Positions 20,575 through 37,610 of a stretch of DNA of 64,000 nucleotides are shown piece by piece. The notes beneath the pieces were generated by a model. It was not told the DNA's origin and made no database searches. It worked only from the letters and a program-made list of their open reading frames with translations. The stretch is taken from positions 4,898,001-4,962,000 of the forward strand of contig CM030332.1 in NCBI GenBank assembly GCA_017654855.1, written 5' to 3'. The translations under genes and the position numbers were made by a program. Within the stretch, counting starts at the first letter, position 1, and each line of letters starts with the position of its first letter. The DNA is from Podospora anserina (lineage: Eukaryota).

Positions 20575-23073
20575 TCAGCAAATCGTCACCTCCTTCTTCT
20601 CCAACCGCAGCGGATCTAGAGCGAGGTCGTTATGTCGCCTGGCCCTCCTGTCTCTCCGGACATCGTCCATAGTGAAATCGAGTGTACTCGACCTCGGAGG
20701 AGGATCCATATCCCCTTCTTCATATGGTCGGGGATATCCAACAACCTCAAAGCTCTTGAAGAAAGGGAGCCCCGTTTCCTTCATAATGGCCCCATCAATG
20801 AATCCAACCCTCTGATAACATCCATCGTCCAACCTCTTCAGCAAAAGTCCAAATCGATAGTCAACAAAGCCGTGATCCAGCACATGCGGCACACGAATCA
20901 AGAGCATTGCTGCCAGCCCGTCTGTGTCAATTTGACTATCAGAAGATGGAAAATCCGTACCACCTTCTACCCATATACAACCGTTCCTCTCAGTCTGCAG
21001 TCGATATACCCCGTCTGTGATTTCAGATCGACTTGGTGCAAGCCCATAGGCATCATTCAACGGCGGTTCCTTCTCTTGCCTTGCTTTGATCTTGGTGACG
21101 GGCAACAGTGGCCCCCTCATCGTCAAAGTGCCTCCCGCTAACCTGCCAAAGGGATCATGATCCCTCAGTTCCAGAGAGTGGGAAACATACTCTGCCAACG
21201 GCTCAAAGTCAAGGACATTCGATTTCCAAGCAGCGCGCTTCTCATACCACTCATAGACAGGAAACTGAACCTGGCCCATAACCGAAGCCCAGGACCACGA
21301 CGGGGCAACATGCTCCTTTGTCGGTTCAAGCAGTCTTTCAGGGCCAGCTCTGCACCAAAACAGCCCCTCCAGAACACCACTTTTCCACAGACCAGCCATA
21401 TACTCACCCGGCATCTCCCTCATAGCTTCGTGATCATTCTTGCTCCTAATACGCACCAGCTCCCTTGCCAACCCAGCCACAGCAGGAAACCGGTCCGTCG
21501 CCTTGGTGATATCCCGTGCAGTAAAATCCTGCACCACCCAGTACCAATCCACCCAGTTGTACCGACACCCTCCACTGACCTCCCTGTCTGCCGGTCTCCA
21601 CGTTCCATTTGAAAAAACTGTCTTCTTGACGTTTGCCGTCTTAGCAAGCCGGCTAACATGGTTCCGCTGCATGCTCAGAATATTCTGACCTACGACCTCC
21701 CCATCTTCATTTGCCCTGATGGTATTGCACTCCCAGAAAGCTTGGCGGGTTCCGTACTGAAGAGCGCGTAGGGACAGAAACCGCTCTTGCAAACACCATG
21801 CCCTTGAACTTAGAGGCTCGTTTCGGAGGTGGTCTGTATTTTCTGTTGATTTCCAGCTGTAGGTCCAGTCACGGTCGTCAAGTTGGAGGCAGAGCTTGAT
21901 GTTGGTGGTCGTTCTGGAAGATGATGGCGAGGTGGGTGGTGGTGGTGGCAGCGGCACCACATCAGGAGCCTCTCTTGAGGAAAGGAACCCCAAGGTGTCC
22001 CCAGGAGAATTCGCTCCGATGATGACCAAGTGGGCGTACCGGTAAATATCCGCCATCTGAGCCGCCTCTCGGGCCCAATCCTCTGGGTCGTCTTGAAGGA
22101 TGCAAAGACTATCAATCCACACATATCGAAGACCCAAGCTCGCCATAAGGATCACTGCATCCCGGAAGGTCTGCGGTAGCTTTGATATTTCGATTCCTTC
22201 GTGGGTGTGAAGGGCCAAGGTCTTTCGAGTTGTCATAAAAGGTGCTCCTCCAGCTCCCCAACAGTGACTTAGCGCAACAAAACGATCATCCTGATCATGG
22301 CCGTCCGAGTCGATTGACTTCTTTTCTTGCAGATATATCCTGTCTCCTCCAGGAAAGACCTCAATCAATCGCGAAGGCATCCATCTTACAGGTTTGTCGA
22401 GTGGCTGGCATGTCCTACCATGCTCATCGACACACTTGTTGAGCCATGTTTTTGCCAGCGTTAGGCTTTGTTTTGACAATGGACTTGCAGACACCAGGGG
22501 GACCACATTGATGTCCTGTCCTGTCTCTGCGCCTGGTTCGGCTTCCAGGGTAGCTTGACCGATCCGAAGCTCTTGCGGGGCACAAACTGCATCCCTATCG
22601 GCCGCCTCGGTGTCCCCCTCACCATCAAGTCTTGCAAGATTCAGATGTGCCCGAAGGCTTGGATGCACATCGAAAGAGGTGCTACTTTTCACATTACAGT
22701 TGCACACAACAGCCCAGCGGTTCGTCAGTCTGCGTCCATCATCGAGATACCGCGGTAACTTCTCCAGGGATATCTCGAACTCCGCTTCGTTTCGATAAGC
22801 CGGAATCTCGTGAATGGGACGGTGAAGGTCTGCTGGCGGGTGCTCAGCGTCATAATCGGCCTCGAGAGTTGCTCTCTCCACCTGGACGACTCTGGACTGC
22901 GACCACCCCTTTATAACGATGGTACAAAACCTGCAGGTGAAGGAGGAGGTGTGCACCTCGCCGAGAGTCTTGTGCCAGAGGGGGCTTAATGGTGTAGCCT
23001 CGGCTTCATCTGTGAATGCTTCATGTATCGTGGTGGAGAGGCTCAAGCAGAGCGTACAGAGGTCGTCGCTCAT
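20575..23073 (-). CDS. HET (heterokaryon incompatibility, PF06985-type) domain protein
   Basis: PSRLIEV, FVALSHCWG, LPQTFRDAV, LRYVWIDSLCILQDD, REAAQMADIYRYA, LSSRAWCLQER, DRFPAVAGLA, APSWSWAS; 832-aa intronless ORF. Confidence 0.93.
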   Translation of the reverse strand: MSDDLCTLCLSLSTTIHEAFTDEAEATPLSPLWHKTLGEVHTSSFTCRFCTIVIKGWSQSRVVQVERATLEADYDAEHPPADLHRPIHEIPAYRNEAEFEISLEKLPRYLDDGRRLTNRWAVVCNCNVKSSTSFDVHPSLRAHLNLARLDGEGDTEAADRDAVCAPQELRIGQATLEAEPGAETGQDINVVPLVSASPLSKQSLTLAKTWLNKCVDEHGRTCQPLDKPVRWMPSRLIEVFPGGDRIYLQEKKSIDSDGHDQDDRFVALSHCWGAGGAPFMTTRKTLALHTHEGIEISKLPQTFRDAVILMASLGLRYVWIDSLCILQDDPEDWAREAAQMADIYRYAHLVIIGANSPGDTLGFLSSREAPDVVPLPPPPPTSPSSSRTTTNIKLCLQLDDRDWTYSWKSTENTDHLRNEPLSSRAWCLQERFLSLRALQYGTRQAFWECNTIRANEDGEVVGQNILSMQRNHVSRLAKTANVKKTVFSNGTWRPADREVSGGCRYNWVDWYWVVQDFTARDITKATDRFPAVAGLARELVRIRSKNDHEAMREMPGEYMAGLWKSGVLEGLFWCRAGPERLLEPTKEHVAPSWSWASVMGQVQFPVYEWYEKRAAWKSNVLDFEPLAEYVSHSLELRDHDPFGRLAGGTLTMRGPLLPVTKIKARQEKEPPLNDAYGLAPSRSEITDGVYRLQTERNGCIWVEGGTDFPSSDSQIDTDGLAAMLLIRVPHVLDHGFVDYRFGLLLKRLDDGCYQRVGFIDGAIMKETGLPFFKSFEVVGYPRPYEEGDMDPPPRSSTLDFTMDDVRRDRRARRHNDLALDPLRLEKKEVTIC

Positions 23074-25933
23074 CTTCTGGTCAAGATGAAGAAAAGTACC
23101 GGAGAGAGTTTACCGTCATGAGGGTGGGAAATTTTGTTTCCGAGAACACTGCGGAAGAAGGCATCATCACCAACGTTCCTTCCTTCTGTTTGCCTAGCCC
23201 CTTCTGTACAAACGCCTCATAACCCCATTCGAACCCTAACCCTCTCGCGGGACATTCTCACTAAATCTCGATTTATTTTATCTACATCCCCTTGCTGTGC
23301 CATTCGACGAAGGCACGACATGTCTCTGCCATTGCCAGACATACCCACCCATTTGCGTTCAGGGTGTCAGTTGGTTGGCGTATCCGATAAACTGATGTTG
23401 TGCTGCCTTCACTTTATCTTGACAGGTTGCCCAAGACTTCTTCATCGCGCGCAATAATGACAAACATTGATGAGCCTGAGCTAAGTTGAGACAGGCCTCT
23501 GTCAGTTCCCGCCTCTGTCTTTGATTTGTCCCGTCCAGGCTAATCATGTCTCGCCTATGGCAGCATGGAGCAAACACCTCGAGAACCTCGACTATCGGAT
23601 GAAAGCACACACATGCACCACCACCTCTGAGCAAGTCCGTCAGCAGCCAACCGCCCATCCCACAGTTTCTGACTGGATGATGTGCATCCCGGTATCGGTT
23701 TCTTGAATTGTGAAGTCCTGTTAGTGAATATCAAATGCATGCGAACTGCACAGGACTCGTCACATCACAATCTCGAAAAGGCGGGGAGCACATTGGATGC
23801 CACTCTCACACACCCACCATCCGATGTTTAAATTGAACCAGTTCGGCTGACAGAGTGAGAGCGGCAGTCGTCCGAATCCTTACGTCGAAAAAGAAAAGAA
23901 CAATGTCAAAACAAGGCCAGCAAAAGATGGGATGAAAATATAAGAAACAAGACAAACCATGGGACGGGAGGGTGAACAGACTTCAAAGTCCCGAGAGTTC
24001 TGCAGGGCACAGACTTAATGGGAGTCTTAATTCTCTTGGAGACCTGCGTGAAGTTGTCTATACAAAGTCTTGTGTTATCAAAAGACTCAAAATTCCAAAG
24101 TCTTTACCCCGCCAACCTGAAAAACAGGAGTTACCCACCGCAACTGTGACAACCCCTCAGTGAGTTTTATGTCCTGCACTAAGCCACTAACACAGCACCA
24201 ACGTATACACTATTCCCTAATCCAGCGAGGCCAAATGTACTTCACAATTCCAACCTCATATGAAACCGAGGCTGATCCCAATAACCTCACTTCCTCTCTC
24301 ATCGAAATGACAGTAAACCTCTTTCAGCGCTTAGTTATCATCTCATCGCCCAGACAACCCCTCCGGAAGAAACTCCGACCATACATACCATCACGACAAT
24401 CCCCCCATCCACATCTGGGCACGCTAGAACACCCTCTCGAAGCTCTTACCCTCCCACATCTCATTCCGAACTCAACTCAACCGAAACACCACCATCCGTA
24501 GCGTCCCCGAATTCATCATCAGGCGGAATCCACGCAAAAAGAGAGAACCCCTCTCTCTTCTGTTCACTGCTACCGCCCAGCTCGTTCCCCATCCCCGTCC
24601 CCATCCCCGAAAGCCCCACGGGGAACTCCACGTTGTTGTAGATAGTGCCATCCCAATCGAGAAGAGCCAAATCCTATCCGCGGATACACTACACTAGATT
24701 AGACCCTTCGATATCTTTTGACACTAACACCGTCGTATACCATGGTGTCGGGTGACACTAAGATCACCACCAAGCCCCCCAGCTAGAGTTCTCGGGAAGA
24801 AAAAAAAAAAAAGACCACACAACAATCAATGAAGAGAGCTTGATGTCTGTGCGGGCTGGCTCTCCTGTTTTCCCTCCCTTGCTTAATCAACCACCACCCA
24901 GACAACATAACATCTCGCTTGTTTATTCTAGAACTCGGTAACCACTCGGCCGTCCCGTTCACAAATGTGTTTCTCGCCCTGGAGATTTTTGTGTGAATCA
25001 GTTCATCTCACGTTAATCCCATGTCTGGGTAGCAATGACAAACCTCCCTCGAGGTCAAGATCGTCATGCCACACCCAACAACACCACCAAAAACAGTAGA
25101 TATAGCATAAACCCATAATTGTGACAATGCACAACACCCATCCACGGCGCACCCGACCCCAGAGCACCAATTCCCCAACCCAAAAAAACCAAAAAAAAGA
25201 GGCGCCCAATACTCTGTACAACCCCATACAACCTCTTCTTTTCGGCCTTTGTCCAAAAAGCACATGTCTTTTTTTTCCTTTCCAAAGTCGTAGCGCCGAA
25301 CAGGGGCCCAACGTGGTGTGTCCACGTACCCGCTCTCGCCGCCGCCGCCGTCACTGTCACTTCGTGGGGCGTCAAAGCCCCCCCCCTTGCCTGCCCTCAG
25401 CCCATCTGCCAGAATCATCGTACTGCATCATACGGCAGTTGCACAAAGTCACCAGAGAAAACCTTTGAGTAAGGTAGAAGAGAAAACAGAACGATAGATT
25501 TGCACCTCCCGAAAAGCCGTGTGATGATATTTACAAGAATATAAAACGCCTACTGACTTTCCCCCATCGTGAGATGATAATGCTCGATGATAAAAAGATG
25601 TACTAATTAAAAAAAAAAATTTAAAAAACAACCAAAAAAATAATCCCTCCATGCAATTTTTTTTGTGTAAAAAAATAAATCAAAATCCGGCCATCCCCAT
25701 CCCGTCGCCCAATTCCCCAACGCCATGCCAAAAAAAAATTGTCAAAAATGTGTATTTGATCGATTGTAAATCTCCACAAGATTGCAATTGTTGTCTCTGT
25801 CGTAAAAATAAAAAAAAGATTCGGATGTTTGTGAAAATGATATGCAAGCCACAACTGAGGTGAGTTGAACGCTGTGTTGTGGCAACTTGAGGTCACACAT
25901 ACACACAAATAGCGTCCGTTGACCGCTTCCCCC

Positions 25934-32929: not shown

Positions 32930-34684
32930 TTAGTTGGGGAGAGTGTCGATGGGGTCGTAGTACTCGTAGACCTTGTTCTCCTTGTCGCGGCCCGTCACAG
33001 CCGGAGCCATGTAAGTCGATAGCCCTGTCTTGGGGTCATATGACTCGTACGAGCAGGCCAAACGCTTACCACCGCCGGCAGGAAGATCGACGACGAACTG
33101 AGGCATCATGAAACCCGCGATGGAGCCGCGGATGCGGGCCTCGAGGTCGAGAATGGTCTGCAGGGGTGTCCGCAGATGCTCAACTCTCTCCACCATGTCG
33201 CACTGGTAGACATAATACTGCGGCTGCGTCAGCAACGTTTGCTACATCACTTGCCACTGTGCATATACAGCTTGGCCATATCAGCAAGGAATTACCCACA
33301 GGGAAGACCTTGTTGTCGGCAAGATCACGGATCAGCTTCGACATAGTGTCGACATCGTCGTTCACGCCCCGCAGAAGCACTGTCTGGTTTCGGACCATGA
33401 CGCCTTCCTCAAACAACTTCTGACTAGCATCTTTGCTGATCCACGAGATCTCGTTGGGGTGGTTGAAGTGAGTGTGCCAGGCAACAGCTTTTCCAGCCTT
33501 CTTGGCCTTGTTGGATATGTCGATGAGGGCATTGACCCAACCGTCCGACTCGTCCAGGATACGGCTCGGGGCTACCGCCAGTCCCTTGGAGGCAAAGCGG
33601 AAGCGCTTGATGTTGGGCATGCCAATCAGCCTGTCGCCAATCATTCTGAGCTGATCCGGTTGCAGGTAGTAAGAGTCGCCTCCAGAGACGACAATATCCT
33701 GCAGGGCGGGCGTGTTCTCGATGTACGCGAAGGCCTCCTCCCATCTCCTGCGGGTCGGCTTCAGAGATGCCTTGGTGACAGTGTCCGTATCGGCTCCCAC
33801 AGCGTAGGACCGCGTGCAGAACATGCAATAAGTTGGGCACACCGAGGTTGCTAGCGGCTTGTCAGCGGGCCACTTTCTACACACAAAACATCGACAAACT
33901 CACGCAGGAAGAGGGCCTTGTCGCTATACCGATGAACAAGGCCCTTGACGGGGGAGTCGGCCTCCTCGTGAAGCGAGTCAAGCGCCAACTTGGGATGATC
34001 GGGAATGAGCACCGACTTGAGAGGAAGAAACTGGCGAATGATGGGGTCGTGCCGGGGGTTCTCCCAGTTGACCCGACTCAAGATGTACGGACTGAAGCTC
34101 TTGGTTAACATCCCTGGACTTTCAACAGGTTTGCGGTCAACTCACGTCATTCGTATGGCCATCGTTGCAGCAGCCACACCCTCCATAACATCCGCGATGA
34201 ACTCATCGCGAGACTGCATCTGCGTGCCCAGCTCATTCAGAGGCACTTCTTCCGGGACGACAGCCTGCAGAAACTTGAACAGCTTGGCTGTGCCCTGCAC
34301 AGTATTGGCAACCTAGGGGACATTGTGTATAAGCTCATGGCCGTGTACCGACAAAAGGAAAGTTGATGGCACCAGACTTACGCTCCAACGATATGAGAGA
34401 AAGTCCTTGGCCGACACATTCTCCCAAACAGGTACCTCGCGCCAGAACTCATCCCTGTCTTGGGGAAGCGCGGTGGCAACGGGGCGTACGATTGGAGCAG
34501 GAGTCGTGCTCTTGGCCGCACTCTTTCTGTTCATAAAGAGGGGAATTCTGCTGGTGGTAGTCTCAAGGCCTTTGCCTACATCGGCGACTTGGGCCTGGCG
34601 ATGGGGCACTGCTGTGACTGTGCGAGCCAAGGCAGGGGCGCGGAGGCAGACGGAAGGCCCGTGGCGAGACAGCAAGGACACCAT
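32930..34684 (-). CDS. kamA: L-lysine 2,3-aminomutase (KamA family radical SAM/PLP enzyme) with a probable mitochondrial presequence; exons 34684-34382, 34312-34146, 34091-33904, 33850-33300, 33217-32930
   Basis: MTPYILSRV..DPIIRQFLP, GLVHRYSDKALFL, CPTYCMFCTR (CxxxCxxC), VVSGGD, HFNHPNEI, NQTVLLRGVNDD, PYYVYQCD, VVDLPAGGGK (PLP lysine); four canonical introns. Confidence 0.95.
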
Positions 34685-36021
34685 GTTGATGGCCGGGCTG
34701 ATGAGAATATCGAAAGGCTTCTCGGTCGGCGGTTGTGAAGGAGATGTGGTTTGATTTGGGTGATCTCGAGTGTCGACTGGTAAGATATCCTATCCTCTTG
34801 CCTTGTTTCTGAGAGGAAGTGGGGGATATTGAGGCCGGGGAACAGCAAGTGCTACTTATACTCCCCGTCCAGAGCCTCAGATAGGATGGTGTGGTGACAA
34901 TACAGATGAGAGTGAATTATCCAGGTGGGTCGGGTTTCACACGGTGTCGTTGCTCTCCGCCGTCACACTATTCACTATACATGAGCAACTCAATATTCTC
35001 TGTTGAGGCGACCGAGTAAATTGACTGGTGCTCTGTGCGAGCTTCTCCTAGCAGGCACGGTGAAGCAGATTGTCCTATTATTCGCCTGATGCTCTTTCCC
35101 TCACGAGATGGTTAGCAGCCCACTCTACCCCAACGAAGTTGCGTGCCTCGGGACCGACGCACTCACCAGCTGACCGCCAGCCTGCTTGATGTTTCAAAGT
35201 TGGAGTATATATAGCCTTGGACGGTCGAGAGTCAGGAGGTTGGGCCGCACTATTCAGGATATTTGCCGCAAGTCTTAATCCCGTGTTCTTGCGATGCTCT
35301 CTCCCACTGTTTTTACAGCTCAACAATCACAAAGGACTTTGAGAATGGGCCTCTCAGATACCGTGACACTGAATCTCGCTGTCAGGTAGGACCTCTTTCT
35401 CACCAGATCTCCAGGTTTTGCTGGCCGGAATGCAGCAAGGGTTGCTTAACACCTTCCCATCCCAGACTCTCATCCAATATCTGCCCCAACGCCCCACTAC
35501 GGAGTGGTGTCAGTATGAAGAAGTGAGCGCGGGATATGCTCCTGATGGTGGGGGACAACATGCCTTGGGAGAGCGAGCCCAGGCCAGGTTTTCTCACTGT
35601 GCTCTTGGTGAAAACTGAGGCTCCTGCGGTGTATAAACACACCTCGACGCCGGTTGACCGTTGGGATCTTCGTCTCTAGACCGGAGCTAACGCGACTTGA
35701 GCACCAATCTGAGTCGGGTTTGATCGGTTTGATCCAGGGGCAGAATTTCGTCACCGTTGAGCCAGATTGTTCGCCGAGTTTTGAGTTTGTTGCCCTGCAG
35801 CTACGACCCTCATATACTTTTCCGGCCATGATGTTCGATCCGAGAGGCTCCAACACCACGACACCGCCAGCGGAAGAAACCAAGATGAAGTATGGGGACC
35901 CAATCCTGCATGCATGCAAGTAGGAGATTCAAGCGTTTAAGAAAGTGAGATCTGACAGACCCCTTGCTTCAGACATCAAGATCGTCAGTCGGCTTCGGCT
36001 CTTGCTGAAAAGCCACCGCAG

Positions 36022-37610
36022 ATGGCAACACCGGCAACCAGGGACTTGGAGTATGCAGATGTCGTTTTGGCTGCATGTCCGCCCAACGGATCGGCGCCAC
36101 AGGCCGAGATGGATCGGGGTTGGCGGCCATGGAAGGTCGTGATAGGCTCTTACTGTCTATCGGTGGCCGTTTACGGACTGTTGAGCACCATCGGTCTCTT
36201 TCAGACACACTGGAAAGAAGACATGCTCAAGGAATACACAGACAGCGAGATCTCGTGGATCATATCCATGTTTGGCTTTCTGGACTGCTTCGTAGCGGCC
36301 CCGGCAGGCATTGTATTCGACCGATATGGTTCAAGGTGGGTCTTGGCGGTCAACAGCATGGCATATCTTGCGTCCTTCGTAGGTCTGGCTTTCTCGTCAA
36401 CCTATAGCGAGCTGATGGGTTGCATGGTGGTGGCAGGAGTCTCATCTGGTACGTGGCTCATCAGAAGCAAGTTTGGGAGTAGCAACATACGCGGGCTAAC
36501 ATGAGCGGTGTAGCAACTATCACGACAGTCGCCTTTGCAGTCGTGAGCCATTGGTTCAAAGAGAAGGCCGGCCTCGCCACGGGGTGCGTGACCGTCAGTG
36601 CGGCATTGGGCGGAATGTTCTTCTCACTTGTGCTCCAGAGTCTGTTTGACCGGCTGCAATGGAGGGATGCAGCCTTGATCTTGACTCTCATCCTGGCCGT
36701 GTTTGTCACGTTGGGCAATCTGCTCGTTGAGATCAACCTACCGCCGCAATCTAAGACGCAGGGAGAGCAAAGGACGGCAGGAGAAACGGAGATCTCCCGG
36801 AAGGCATGCGGCACATGGCAGTCGATACTGGGGATCATCCAAAACCCCAAATTTTGGCTCATTACTTATGCCATATTCGGTGAGTGACCTTGGTGGTCCA
36901 GAAAGACGTCGACTGGGCAATACTAACTCAGACATTTGTGCGCAGCATACGAACTTGTCCTCTTCATCCAATGGGGGTCGATCCCCCCTTACGCCGTGGC
37001 GACCAACTTTGGGGAGAAGCAGTTCTACCTCATGATGTCGTACAACATTGGCGCTGCATTTGGGAGAATCTTGCCACCGTTTGTGTCCGATAGGTTGCTT
37101 GGTCCGCTGAACACAACCATAGCCATGAACATTTTCACATTGACAGCGGTACTTGCCATCTGGCTGCCGGCGGGAGCGAGTTCCATCGACATGCTCTATC
37201 TGGTGGTTGTTCTTATGGGCATCGGCACAGGAAGCTTTGTGCCTCTAGGCGGTAGGATTTCAGGAAACATATTCCTGGCTTGAAGACTTGCTGACGTTTC
37301 AGTCGTGTAGTGGCTTGCATGGGTGCTCTTTGTAAGCCTCAAGACATGGGGAAATGGCTAGGCTTCGCCTATGCAATTTCGGGGTTTGCGTAAGTTCTCC
37401 AGATTTTTCTGATCACTTATCTCTCTATACTGAACAAAACCTCTCAGGACTTTGATAGGGAACCCCGCAACCGGAGCGATCCTTGACAGACACGGATCTA
37501 ATGGCCTCGTGGCGTTCCTCGCAGCAGTTCTCGCTTCTGGCCTGATCAGCATAGGTATCCTCCGATGGCAGTGCAATGGCCGGCGTTGGTTGGTGATGGG
37601 CAAGATCTGA
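36022..37610 (+). CDS. MFS transporter, monocarboxylate-permease-like (MCT/Mch family); exons 36022-36448, 36514-36879, 36946-37251, 37311-37389, 37448-37610
   Basis: GLFQTHW..EISWIIS, GIVFDRYGSR (motif A), SHWFKEKAGLATG, GRILPPFVSDRLLG, LIGNPATGAIL; many hydrophobic segments; four GT..AG introns. Confidence 0.9.

Follow-up and report, generated by a model that had tools for sequence, protein, structure and literature searches.

The stretch of Podospora anserina DNA analysed here (contig CM030332.1, positions 4,898,001–4,962,000; its full 64,000 bp are referred to as the window) carries on the minus strand, at window positions 32930–34684, a gene of five exons and four introns whose 1497 nt coding sequence specifies a 498-residue, lysine 2,3-aminomutase-like protein of the KamA family. 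All four introns have GT..AG ends. The product is identical, letter for letter, to a database protein (P0138) that falls in a 90% identity cluster represented by Podospora pseudoanserina QC764_113090, together with P. anserina PODANS_1_13090 and proteins of sister species. Five named 498-residue members of this cluster, all from the P. anserina species complex, differ from the product at 4–7 positions, and the four differences from the P. pseudoanserina protein all lie within residues 46–117. The gene is nuclear and is the Podospora orthologue of Pa_1_13090. Its features are as follows; PLP is pyridoxal phosphate, SAM S-adenosylmethionine and pLDDT the predicted local distance difference test score.

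32930–34684, minus strand: coding region from start to stop codon, 498 residues (gene model; product identical to P0138; spliced X6 and X9 contigs)
34382–34684, minus strand: exon 1, residues 1–101, the variable N-terminal extension and the beginning of the conserved core (gene model, contigs)
34451–34684, minus strand: residues 1–78, a basic, non-conserved extension predicted to be disordered, of which the first ~30 form a putative mitochondrial presequence (pLDDT, composition)
34313–34381, minus strand: intron 1, 69 nt, GT..AG (skipped in X1, X6 and X9)
34146–34312, minus strand: exon 2 (gene model, contigs)
34092–34145, minus strand: intron 2, 54 nt, GT..AG (skipped in X6 and X9)
33904–34091, minus strand: exon 3 (gene model, contigs)
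33851–33903, minus strand: intron 3, 53 nt, GT..AG (skipped in X1, X6 and X9)
33300–33850, minus strand: exon 4, radical-SAM core (gene model)
33816–33839, minus strand: CPTYCMFC, residues 224–231, the [4Fe-4S]/SAM cluster motif, followed by R233 (gene model, alignment to PDB 2a5h)
33218–33299, minus strand: intron 4, 82 nt, GT..AG, using as acceptor the second AG of an adjacent pair (skipped in X1, X6 and X9)
32930–33217, minus strand: exon 5, including the stop codon (gene model, contigs)
33197–33217, minus strand: YYVYQCD, residues 404–410, with D410 aligned to clostridial D293 (gene model, alignment to 2a5h)
33065–33088, minus strand: DLPAGGGK, residues 447–454, with D447 aligned to clostridial D330 and K454 to the PLP lysine K337 (gene model, alignment to 2a5h)

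The X6 and X9 contigs (two public runs from two studies) are co-linear with the window and omit exactly the four introns, and the skipped segments end in CT..AC on the plus strand, i.e. GT..AG on the minus strand. None of the runs listed is recorded as RNA, and the RNA nature of these contigs is taken from the missing introns themselves. Because all four introns are omitted, the aminomutase gene is transcribed and spliced as modelled; X1 also includes unspliced pieces that span introns 2 and 4. The start is bounded by an in-frame stop 36 codons to its 5' side (at 34792), and a single upstream open reading frame (ORF), of four codons, is present in the 436 nt examined. The five-exon structure and the three motifs listed above had been put forward in a preliminary description made from the sequence alone, and the contigs and the gene model agree with it apart from one splice junction: splicing at the acceptor of intron 4 actually used yields ...KVFPYYVYQCD, in agreement with the database models.

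The gene encodes a bona fide KamA-family enzyme that belongs to a distinct, short-tailed subfamily. The protein scores above the cut-off of the NCBIfam family model TIGR00238 (224.2 bits, with a cut-off of 199.2), and its Pfam matches, to the radical-SAM and LAM_C domains, are below threshold only. The sole sequence match in the PDB is Clostridium subterminale lysine 2,3-aminomutase (2a5h; E value 6e-61), and the HMMER alignment of the two places R233, D410, D447 and K454 on clostridial R134, D293, D330 and K337. In the clostridial enzyme R134 binds the lysine carboxylate, D293 and D330 bind the epsilon-ammonium group and K337 carries the PLP. The cluster cysteines are C224, C228 and C231. An AlphaFold model built from a 12-sequence fungal alignment has a mean pLDDT of 70.8, with most core blocks above 85 and residues 1–73 below 50, and a Foldseek search with this model again finds 2a5h (E value 1.4e-28, TM score 0.72 on the target), followed by generic radical-SAM barrels at about 1e-4.

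The similarity to the clostridial enzyme, and to the TIGR03820 profile that describes KamA/AblA, extends over the fold and the domain order, the CxxxCxxC and GGD motifs, the PLP lysine, the carboxylate-binding Arg, the two Asp residues that bind the epsilon-ammonium group and an N-terminal W-rich helical region, with ~32% identity in the Foldseek alignment. The differences are two insertions of ~7 and ~11 residues, an added targeting-like N-terminus, placement in a separate clade and the C-terminus. Beyond the PLP lysine the window protein has a tail of 44 residues containing a single Cys (C458), and it matches only positions 43–330 of the 417 in TIGR03820, lacking the last ~85, which correspond to the Cys/Zn region; the clostridial C-terminal Cys region is therefore absent. 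Asp385 is aligned to clostridial Cys268, a Zn ligand in that enzyme. Retention of both lysine-binding Asp residues and loss of the C-terminal Cys cluster had both been noted earlier and are borne out by the alignment and by the tail. EpmB (YjeK), the aminomutase of elongation factor P (EF-P) beta-lysylation, is likewise a KamA-family protein without a long Cys-rich tail, but an EpmB protein (L081 of genome G004) is the row most distant from the window protein in the tree described below.

A search of 1.84 billion cluster representatives yielded 4624 matches at E values of 1e-3 or less, of which 446 are at 1e-30 or less, and prokaryotic genomes were scanned at one genome per species. The scan identified 25 prokaryotic loci (L001–L024 and L043) with 44–50% identity over residues 79–496, including the fungal-type C-terminus, in Eremiobacterota/Vulcanimicrobiota, Acidiferrales, Fimbriimonadaceae, Cyclobacteriaceae, one gammaproteobacterium and one Rhizobiales metagenome-assembled genome (MAG); the remaining kept loci have 30–38% identity only. 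A tree of 114 rows (13 of 127 were dropped for an incomplete core) was computed from 382 columns with IQ-TREE in quick mode under LG+C20 and rooted on EpmB. The window protein lies in a 55-row clade with full support in the Shimodaira–Hasegawa-like approximate likelihood ratio test (SH-aLRT 100), on a stem 1.22 substitutions per site long. All eight KamA/AblA-equivalog rows fall outside it, in a 44-row clade of their own with other rows, and the two AblA-like-2 rows and EpmB are likewise separate. Phylogeny had been proposed beforehand as a check on the assignment, and it sets the protein apart from each of these named groups. The bacterial members, which also include some Pseudomonadota with a Vibrio metschnikovii protein, share Tyr235 and His345 with the fungal proteins but have no N-terminal extension and no introns, and their genes show operon-like linkage to Kdd or AblB genes. 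Domain fusions were seen in several canonical bacterial KamA proteins: P0344 carries an AblB acetyltransferase, P0331, P0338 and P0350 carry D-Ala-D-Ala-ligase-like ATP-grasp domains, and P0385 carries a muramoyltetrapeptide carboxypeptidase-like domain.

The fungi in the 55-row clade form one group of 18 rows (support 99) nested among bacterial and unnamed metagenomic rows, and the sister of this group (support 96) includes the cluster with the Vibrio metschnikovii protein. Nesting among bacteria here refers to the named rows only, in a quick tree with an outgroup root, and an organism name is attached to three of 20 tree representatives looked up (Zalerion, Plenodomus and the V. metschnikovii cluster member), the rest being metagenome proteins. 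The suggestion in the preliminary description that the gene is of bacterial origin is thus plausible on this topology, rather than proven by it. Within the fungal group two proteins from Psilocybe (Agaricales) group with Pseudogymnoascus (Leotiomycetes) inside the ascomycetes (P0075, P0083 and P0085; SH-aLRT 98), which hints at either a fungus-to-fungus transfer or an artefact of the quick tree.

In a search with exon 4, the best 120 of 4763 matches span Sordariomycetes, Leotiomycetes, Dothideomycetes and the agarics Psilocybe and Galerina, and all of those with an organism name are fungi except for one record labelled Quercus suber. This record (P0116) is 68% identical over exon 4 and ranks among Dothideomycete-level matches, and it probably reflects contamination of a plant assembly with fungal DNA. 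Orthologues are present in at least 120 fungal clusters among the matches listed, mostly as a single match and across many orders of Dikarya, and in many of these records the annotation already reads 'L-lysine 2,3-aminomutase' or 'KamA family protein'. Neurospora crassa has one cluster (P0019), with 84% identity over 380 aligned columns.

The catalytic and substrate-binding residues are conserved across the subfamily. D447 is present in all 18 fungal and all 37 bacterial rows, R233 in 17 of the 18 and in 37 of 37, K454 in 17/18 and 36/37, and the Cys triad in 16–17 fungal rows and every one of the 37 bacterial rows; D410 is kept in 17/18 fungal and 34/37 bacterial rows, the other three having Glu. 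The gene contexts of the bacterial members are informative as to function. Beta-lysine metabolism in bacteria and archaea comprises lysine fermentation, formation of the osmolyte N-epsilon-acetyl-beta-lysine, EF-P modification and antibiotic synthesis. At 19 of the 25 bacterial loci a gene for a Kdd-like L-erythro-3,5-diaminohexanoate dehydrogenase lies directly upstream on the same strand (the single one of the 19 that was scored has 246.7 bits, with a cut-off of 200), and at one further locus a weaker Kdd homologue (148 bits, below the cut-off) is located downstream on the opposite strand, beside an ATP-grasp gene. At two loci the KamA gene is followed by a gene for an AblB-type putative beta-lysine N-acetyltransferase, accompanied by transporters, with scores of 306 bits in L002 (cut-off 205.1) and 184.8 bits, below the cut-off, in L001; the remaining three loci have neither context. 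Two genomes with the Kdd context were searched (G001 and G005), and each has a gene for lysine 5,6-aminomutase (alpha subunit; 790 and 785 bits) and one for a BKACE/Kce enzyme (330 and 339 bits), neither of which was found in the two AblB-context genomes or in the gammaproteobacterium. Members of the subfamily thus occur in the two settings that are classical for beta-lysine, degradation of lysine and formation of N-acetyl-beta-lysine, and because both of these contexts use beta-lysine, lysine 2,3-aminomutase activity is the best reading for the fungal enzyme.

The gammaproteobacterial MAG in this set (G004) encodes both a true EpmB (L081, 464 bits) and a fungal-type KamA (L006/L086) whose gene has as neighbours an ATP-grasp gene and one for a Kdd-like dehydrogenase; since the fungal-type gene has these flanks and EpmB is encoded separately, the two paralogues are clearly not redundant.

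Residues 1–78 of the window protein have no sequence conservation among fungal homologues, but their composition is conserved. In 77 fungal homologues whose core motif is preceded by 15 residues or more, the extension has a median length of 80 residues; the first 30 residues contain no Asp or Glu in 62 and at most one in 71, and the net charge is +3 or more in 69. The N-terminus of the window protein quoted in the preliminary description is correct, with its first acidic residue at position 35; five of its first 40 residues are Arg or Lys, and residues 28–31 (HRQ|A) form an R-2 type motif. The bacterial relatives start at the core, lacking any such extension. The mitochondrial targeting that had been proposed is therefore supported as regards a presequence-like composition, and from these sequence features we consider import of the protein into mitochondria likely.

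The reading that we favour, with moderate confidence, is that the gene encodes a presequence-bearing, likely mitochondrial KamA-family enzyme that converts L-lysine to beta-lysine and belongs to a short-tailed subfamily probably derived from bacteria. The protein would be made with a basic presequence of ~30 residues and a poorly conserved linker, and would most likely be imported into the mitochondrial matrix, the site of Fe-S assembly and of SAM and PLP supply. There the [4Fe-4S] cluster, SAM and PLP would together shift the alpha-amino group of L-lysine to C3 and so form beta-lysine. The subfamily, shared with bacteria, was probably acquired from them by fungi. Of this, the gene structure, its splicing and expression, the family membership, the residue conservation and the subfamily with its bacterial gene contexts are shown directly, whereas the identity of the substrate as lysine, the product's stereochemistry and residence in mitochondria are inferred.

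Several observations weigh against parts of this reading. The window protein fails every function-level (equivalog) cut-off in NCBIfam, scoring 233.4 bits with TIGR03820 (cut-off 525.4) over the part of the profile given above, 204 with the AblA-like-2 model (396), 181.6 with the arginine 2,3-aminomutase model TIGR04468 (600), 169.5 with the EpmB model TIGR03821 (369.3) and 167.8 with the glutamate 2,3-aminomutase model TIGR04368 (650); the Asp pair that is replaced in glutamate 2,3-aminomutase is kept in the window protein. Close to the cluster and the active site the subfamily has Tyr235, at a position occupied by Arg in 48 of 59 other KamA rows, and His345, at one where 41 of the 59 have Asn or Ser, and since these residues are peculiar to the subfamily, substrate specificity or stereochemistry could differ. 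The 19 loci with upstream Kdd genes come mostly from one lineage (Eremiobacterota/Vulcanimicrobiota) and hence are not independent. An enzyme with the same KamA chemistry but another substrate or product, such as a basic amino acid other than lysine, beta-lysine of the opposite configuration (as formed by EpmB), or protein- or carrier-bound lysine, would account for these failed cut-offs and signature residues, as well as for the deep separation of the subfamily (with its long, fully supported stem) and the missing clostridial Zn/Cys tail. We nonetheless consider it unlikely: Arg233 is kept along with both Asp residues, beta-lysine contexts of two kinds (Kdd and AblB) surround the bacterial members, and EpmB is the most distant group in the tree. 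As to location, the counts of N-terminal composition are a heuristic only, net charge is below +3 in eight of the 77 homologues and Psilocybe has two acidic residues among the first 30, and no localisation, proteomic or enzymatic evidence was found in the literature searched. A lysine 2,3-aminomutase that resides in the cytosol or elsewhere, with the N-terminal extension serving as a linker or regulatory tail, would fit these few acidic N-termini and the length of the extension (~78 residues is long for a presequence alone), and the literature searched yielded no experimental localisation that speaks to it. That such a composition should be conserved in the absence of sequence conservation, that a candidate R-2 type cleavage motif is present and that bacterial relatives lack the extension all argue for a targeting role, and a non-mitochondrial location appears improbable to us.

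The surroundings of the gene bear on two further explanations. Pfam analysis of the 44 ORFs of at least 118 codons in the 64 kb window identifies, among others, a carboxylesterase, a pentatricopeptide repeat (PPR) protein, an RNA 3'-phosphate cyclase, the large subunit of carbamoyl-phosphate synthase, a G-patch protein, a heterokaryon incompatibility (HET) domain protein, a C2H2 zinc-finger protein and a diphthamide synthase. A gene for a major facilitator superfamily (MFS) transporter, represented by at least three ORF pieces at 35956–37283 on the plus strand, divergently adjoins the aminomutase gene. Bacterial KamA homologues often supply secondary-metabolite clusters, and this, together with the adjoining transporter gene, could suggest that the Podospora enzyme supplies a beta-amino acid to such a cluster. 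We regard this as very improbable and have rejected it, as no non-ribosomal peptide synthetase (NRPS), polyketide synthase (PKS) or tailoring-enzyme domains are present among the 44 ORFs; moreover, the neighbours are housekeeping genes (carbamoyl-phosphate synthase, RNA cyclase, PPR protein and diphthamide synthase) and the HET-domain gene, and the gene is conserved, mostly as a single match, in many Dikarya orders among the matches listed. Pfam and tblastn searches also found no Kdd, AblB, BKACE or other beta-lysine-using gene in the window, which counts against the favoured beta-lysine assignment too, and with tblastn the 253 ORFs that neighbour the bacterial sister genes matched nothing in the window but the KamA gene itself. 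From the absence of NRPS, PKS, Kdd, AblB and BKACE genes in the window we conclude that the aminomutase gene is not in a recognisable biosynthetic cluster. A query with an Eremiobacterota Kdd is uninformative on fungi, the 120 matches listed carrying bacterial names or none. That the closest non-fungal relatives are bacterial might also raise the question of bacterial contamination, a pseudogene or an annotation artefact; this we have likewise rejected and consider to have a negligible chance of being correct, given four spliceosomal introns that are removed in transcripts, fungal gene neighbours, an intact frame with intact catalytic residues, and the at least 120 listed fungal clusters with orthologues.

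No study on the function of a fungal KamA protein was found in the literature searched. A table in a report on Moniliophthora roreri has an entry 'l-lysine-2,3-aminomutase' (PMC3948071). The gene NCU02663, presumably the Neurospora orthologue represented by P0019, is described in PMC3364853 as expressed ~50-fold higher in a vvd deletion strain than in white-collar mutants, and its deletion strain FGSC16318 as viable with normal cellulase activity; the paper gives no enzymology, and no other paper in the literature searched names the gene. Three further papers retrieved were set aside as not concerning a fungal KamA, two because they deal with glutamate-1-semialdehyde aminomutase (PMC10886707 and PMC4022528) and one with alanine 2,3-aminomutase only (PMC8262920). 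The novelty claimed in the preliminary description was therefore overstated, the gene being annotated in many fungal records and the Neurospora gene so named having both published expression data and a viable knockout (PMC3364853), although its view that the fungal pathway is uncharacterised appears to stand in the literature searched.

As to what such a pathway could be, PMC8085122 places a probable loss of cobalamin (B12) use at the base of Dikarya and describes lysine 5,6-aminomutase as confined to prokaryotes. For both of these reasons the bacterial fermentation route past beta-lysine is not expected in this fungus; the next fermentation step being B12-dependent, a fungal pathway is left without a known continuation, a further difficulty for the favoured assignment. 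We tentatively suggest, as an idea that is possible but somewhat doubtful, that Dikarya may possess an undescribed, B12-independent beta-lysine pathway in mitochondria, fed by a short-tailed aminomutase of bacterial derivation that operates in aerobic eukaryotes and, in Neurospora, under white-collar/VVD light control; the pathway's product could be a beta-lysine-derived solute, an intermediate of nitrogen catabolism or a modification, in each case new to eukaryotes. A conserved, expressed and probably mitochondrial aminomutase in many Dikarya would point to a part of fungal amino-acid metabolism that has a database name and no chemistry, and would add another case to the few radical-SAM enzymes that act in organelles of eukaryotes. 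What is new is this unexplored biology and not the existence of the gene, which was publicly annotated already.

Some features of the neighbourhood are of interest in their own right. The HET-domain ORF is large (20578–23109, minus strand) and carries a domain typical of Podospora. To the 5' side of the aminomutase gene, contigs from X1 and X14 jump from 34780 to 35056, and the ends of the skipped segment (34780–35055) read GT..AG on the plus strand, the strand opposite that of the aminomutase gene, which points to a plus-strand transcript that begins less than ~100 nt from the aminomutase start codon and has an intron of ~275 nt; it could be the 5' untranslated region of the divergent MFS gene or a non-coding RNA. 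At the other end of the gene one X1 contig skips 71 nt within exon 5 (33011–33081), also with GT..AG ends on the plus strand, and a 1976 nt X1 contig extends from ~1.5 kb to the left into exon 5, so that the aminomutase gene seems to be overlapped at its 3' end by a convergent neighbour or an antisense transcript.

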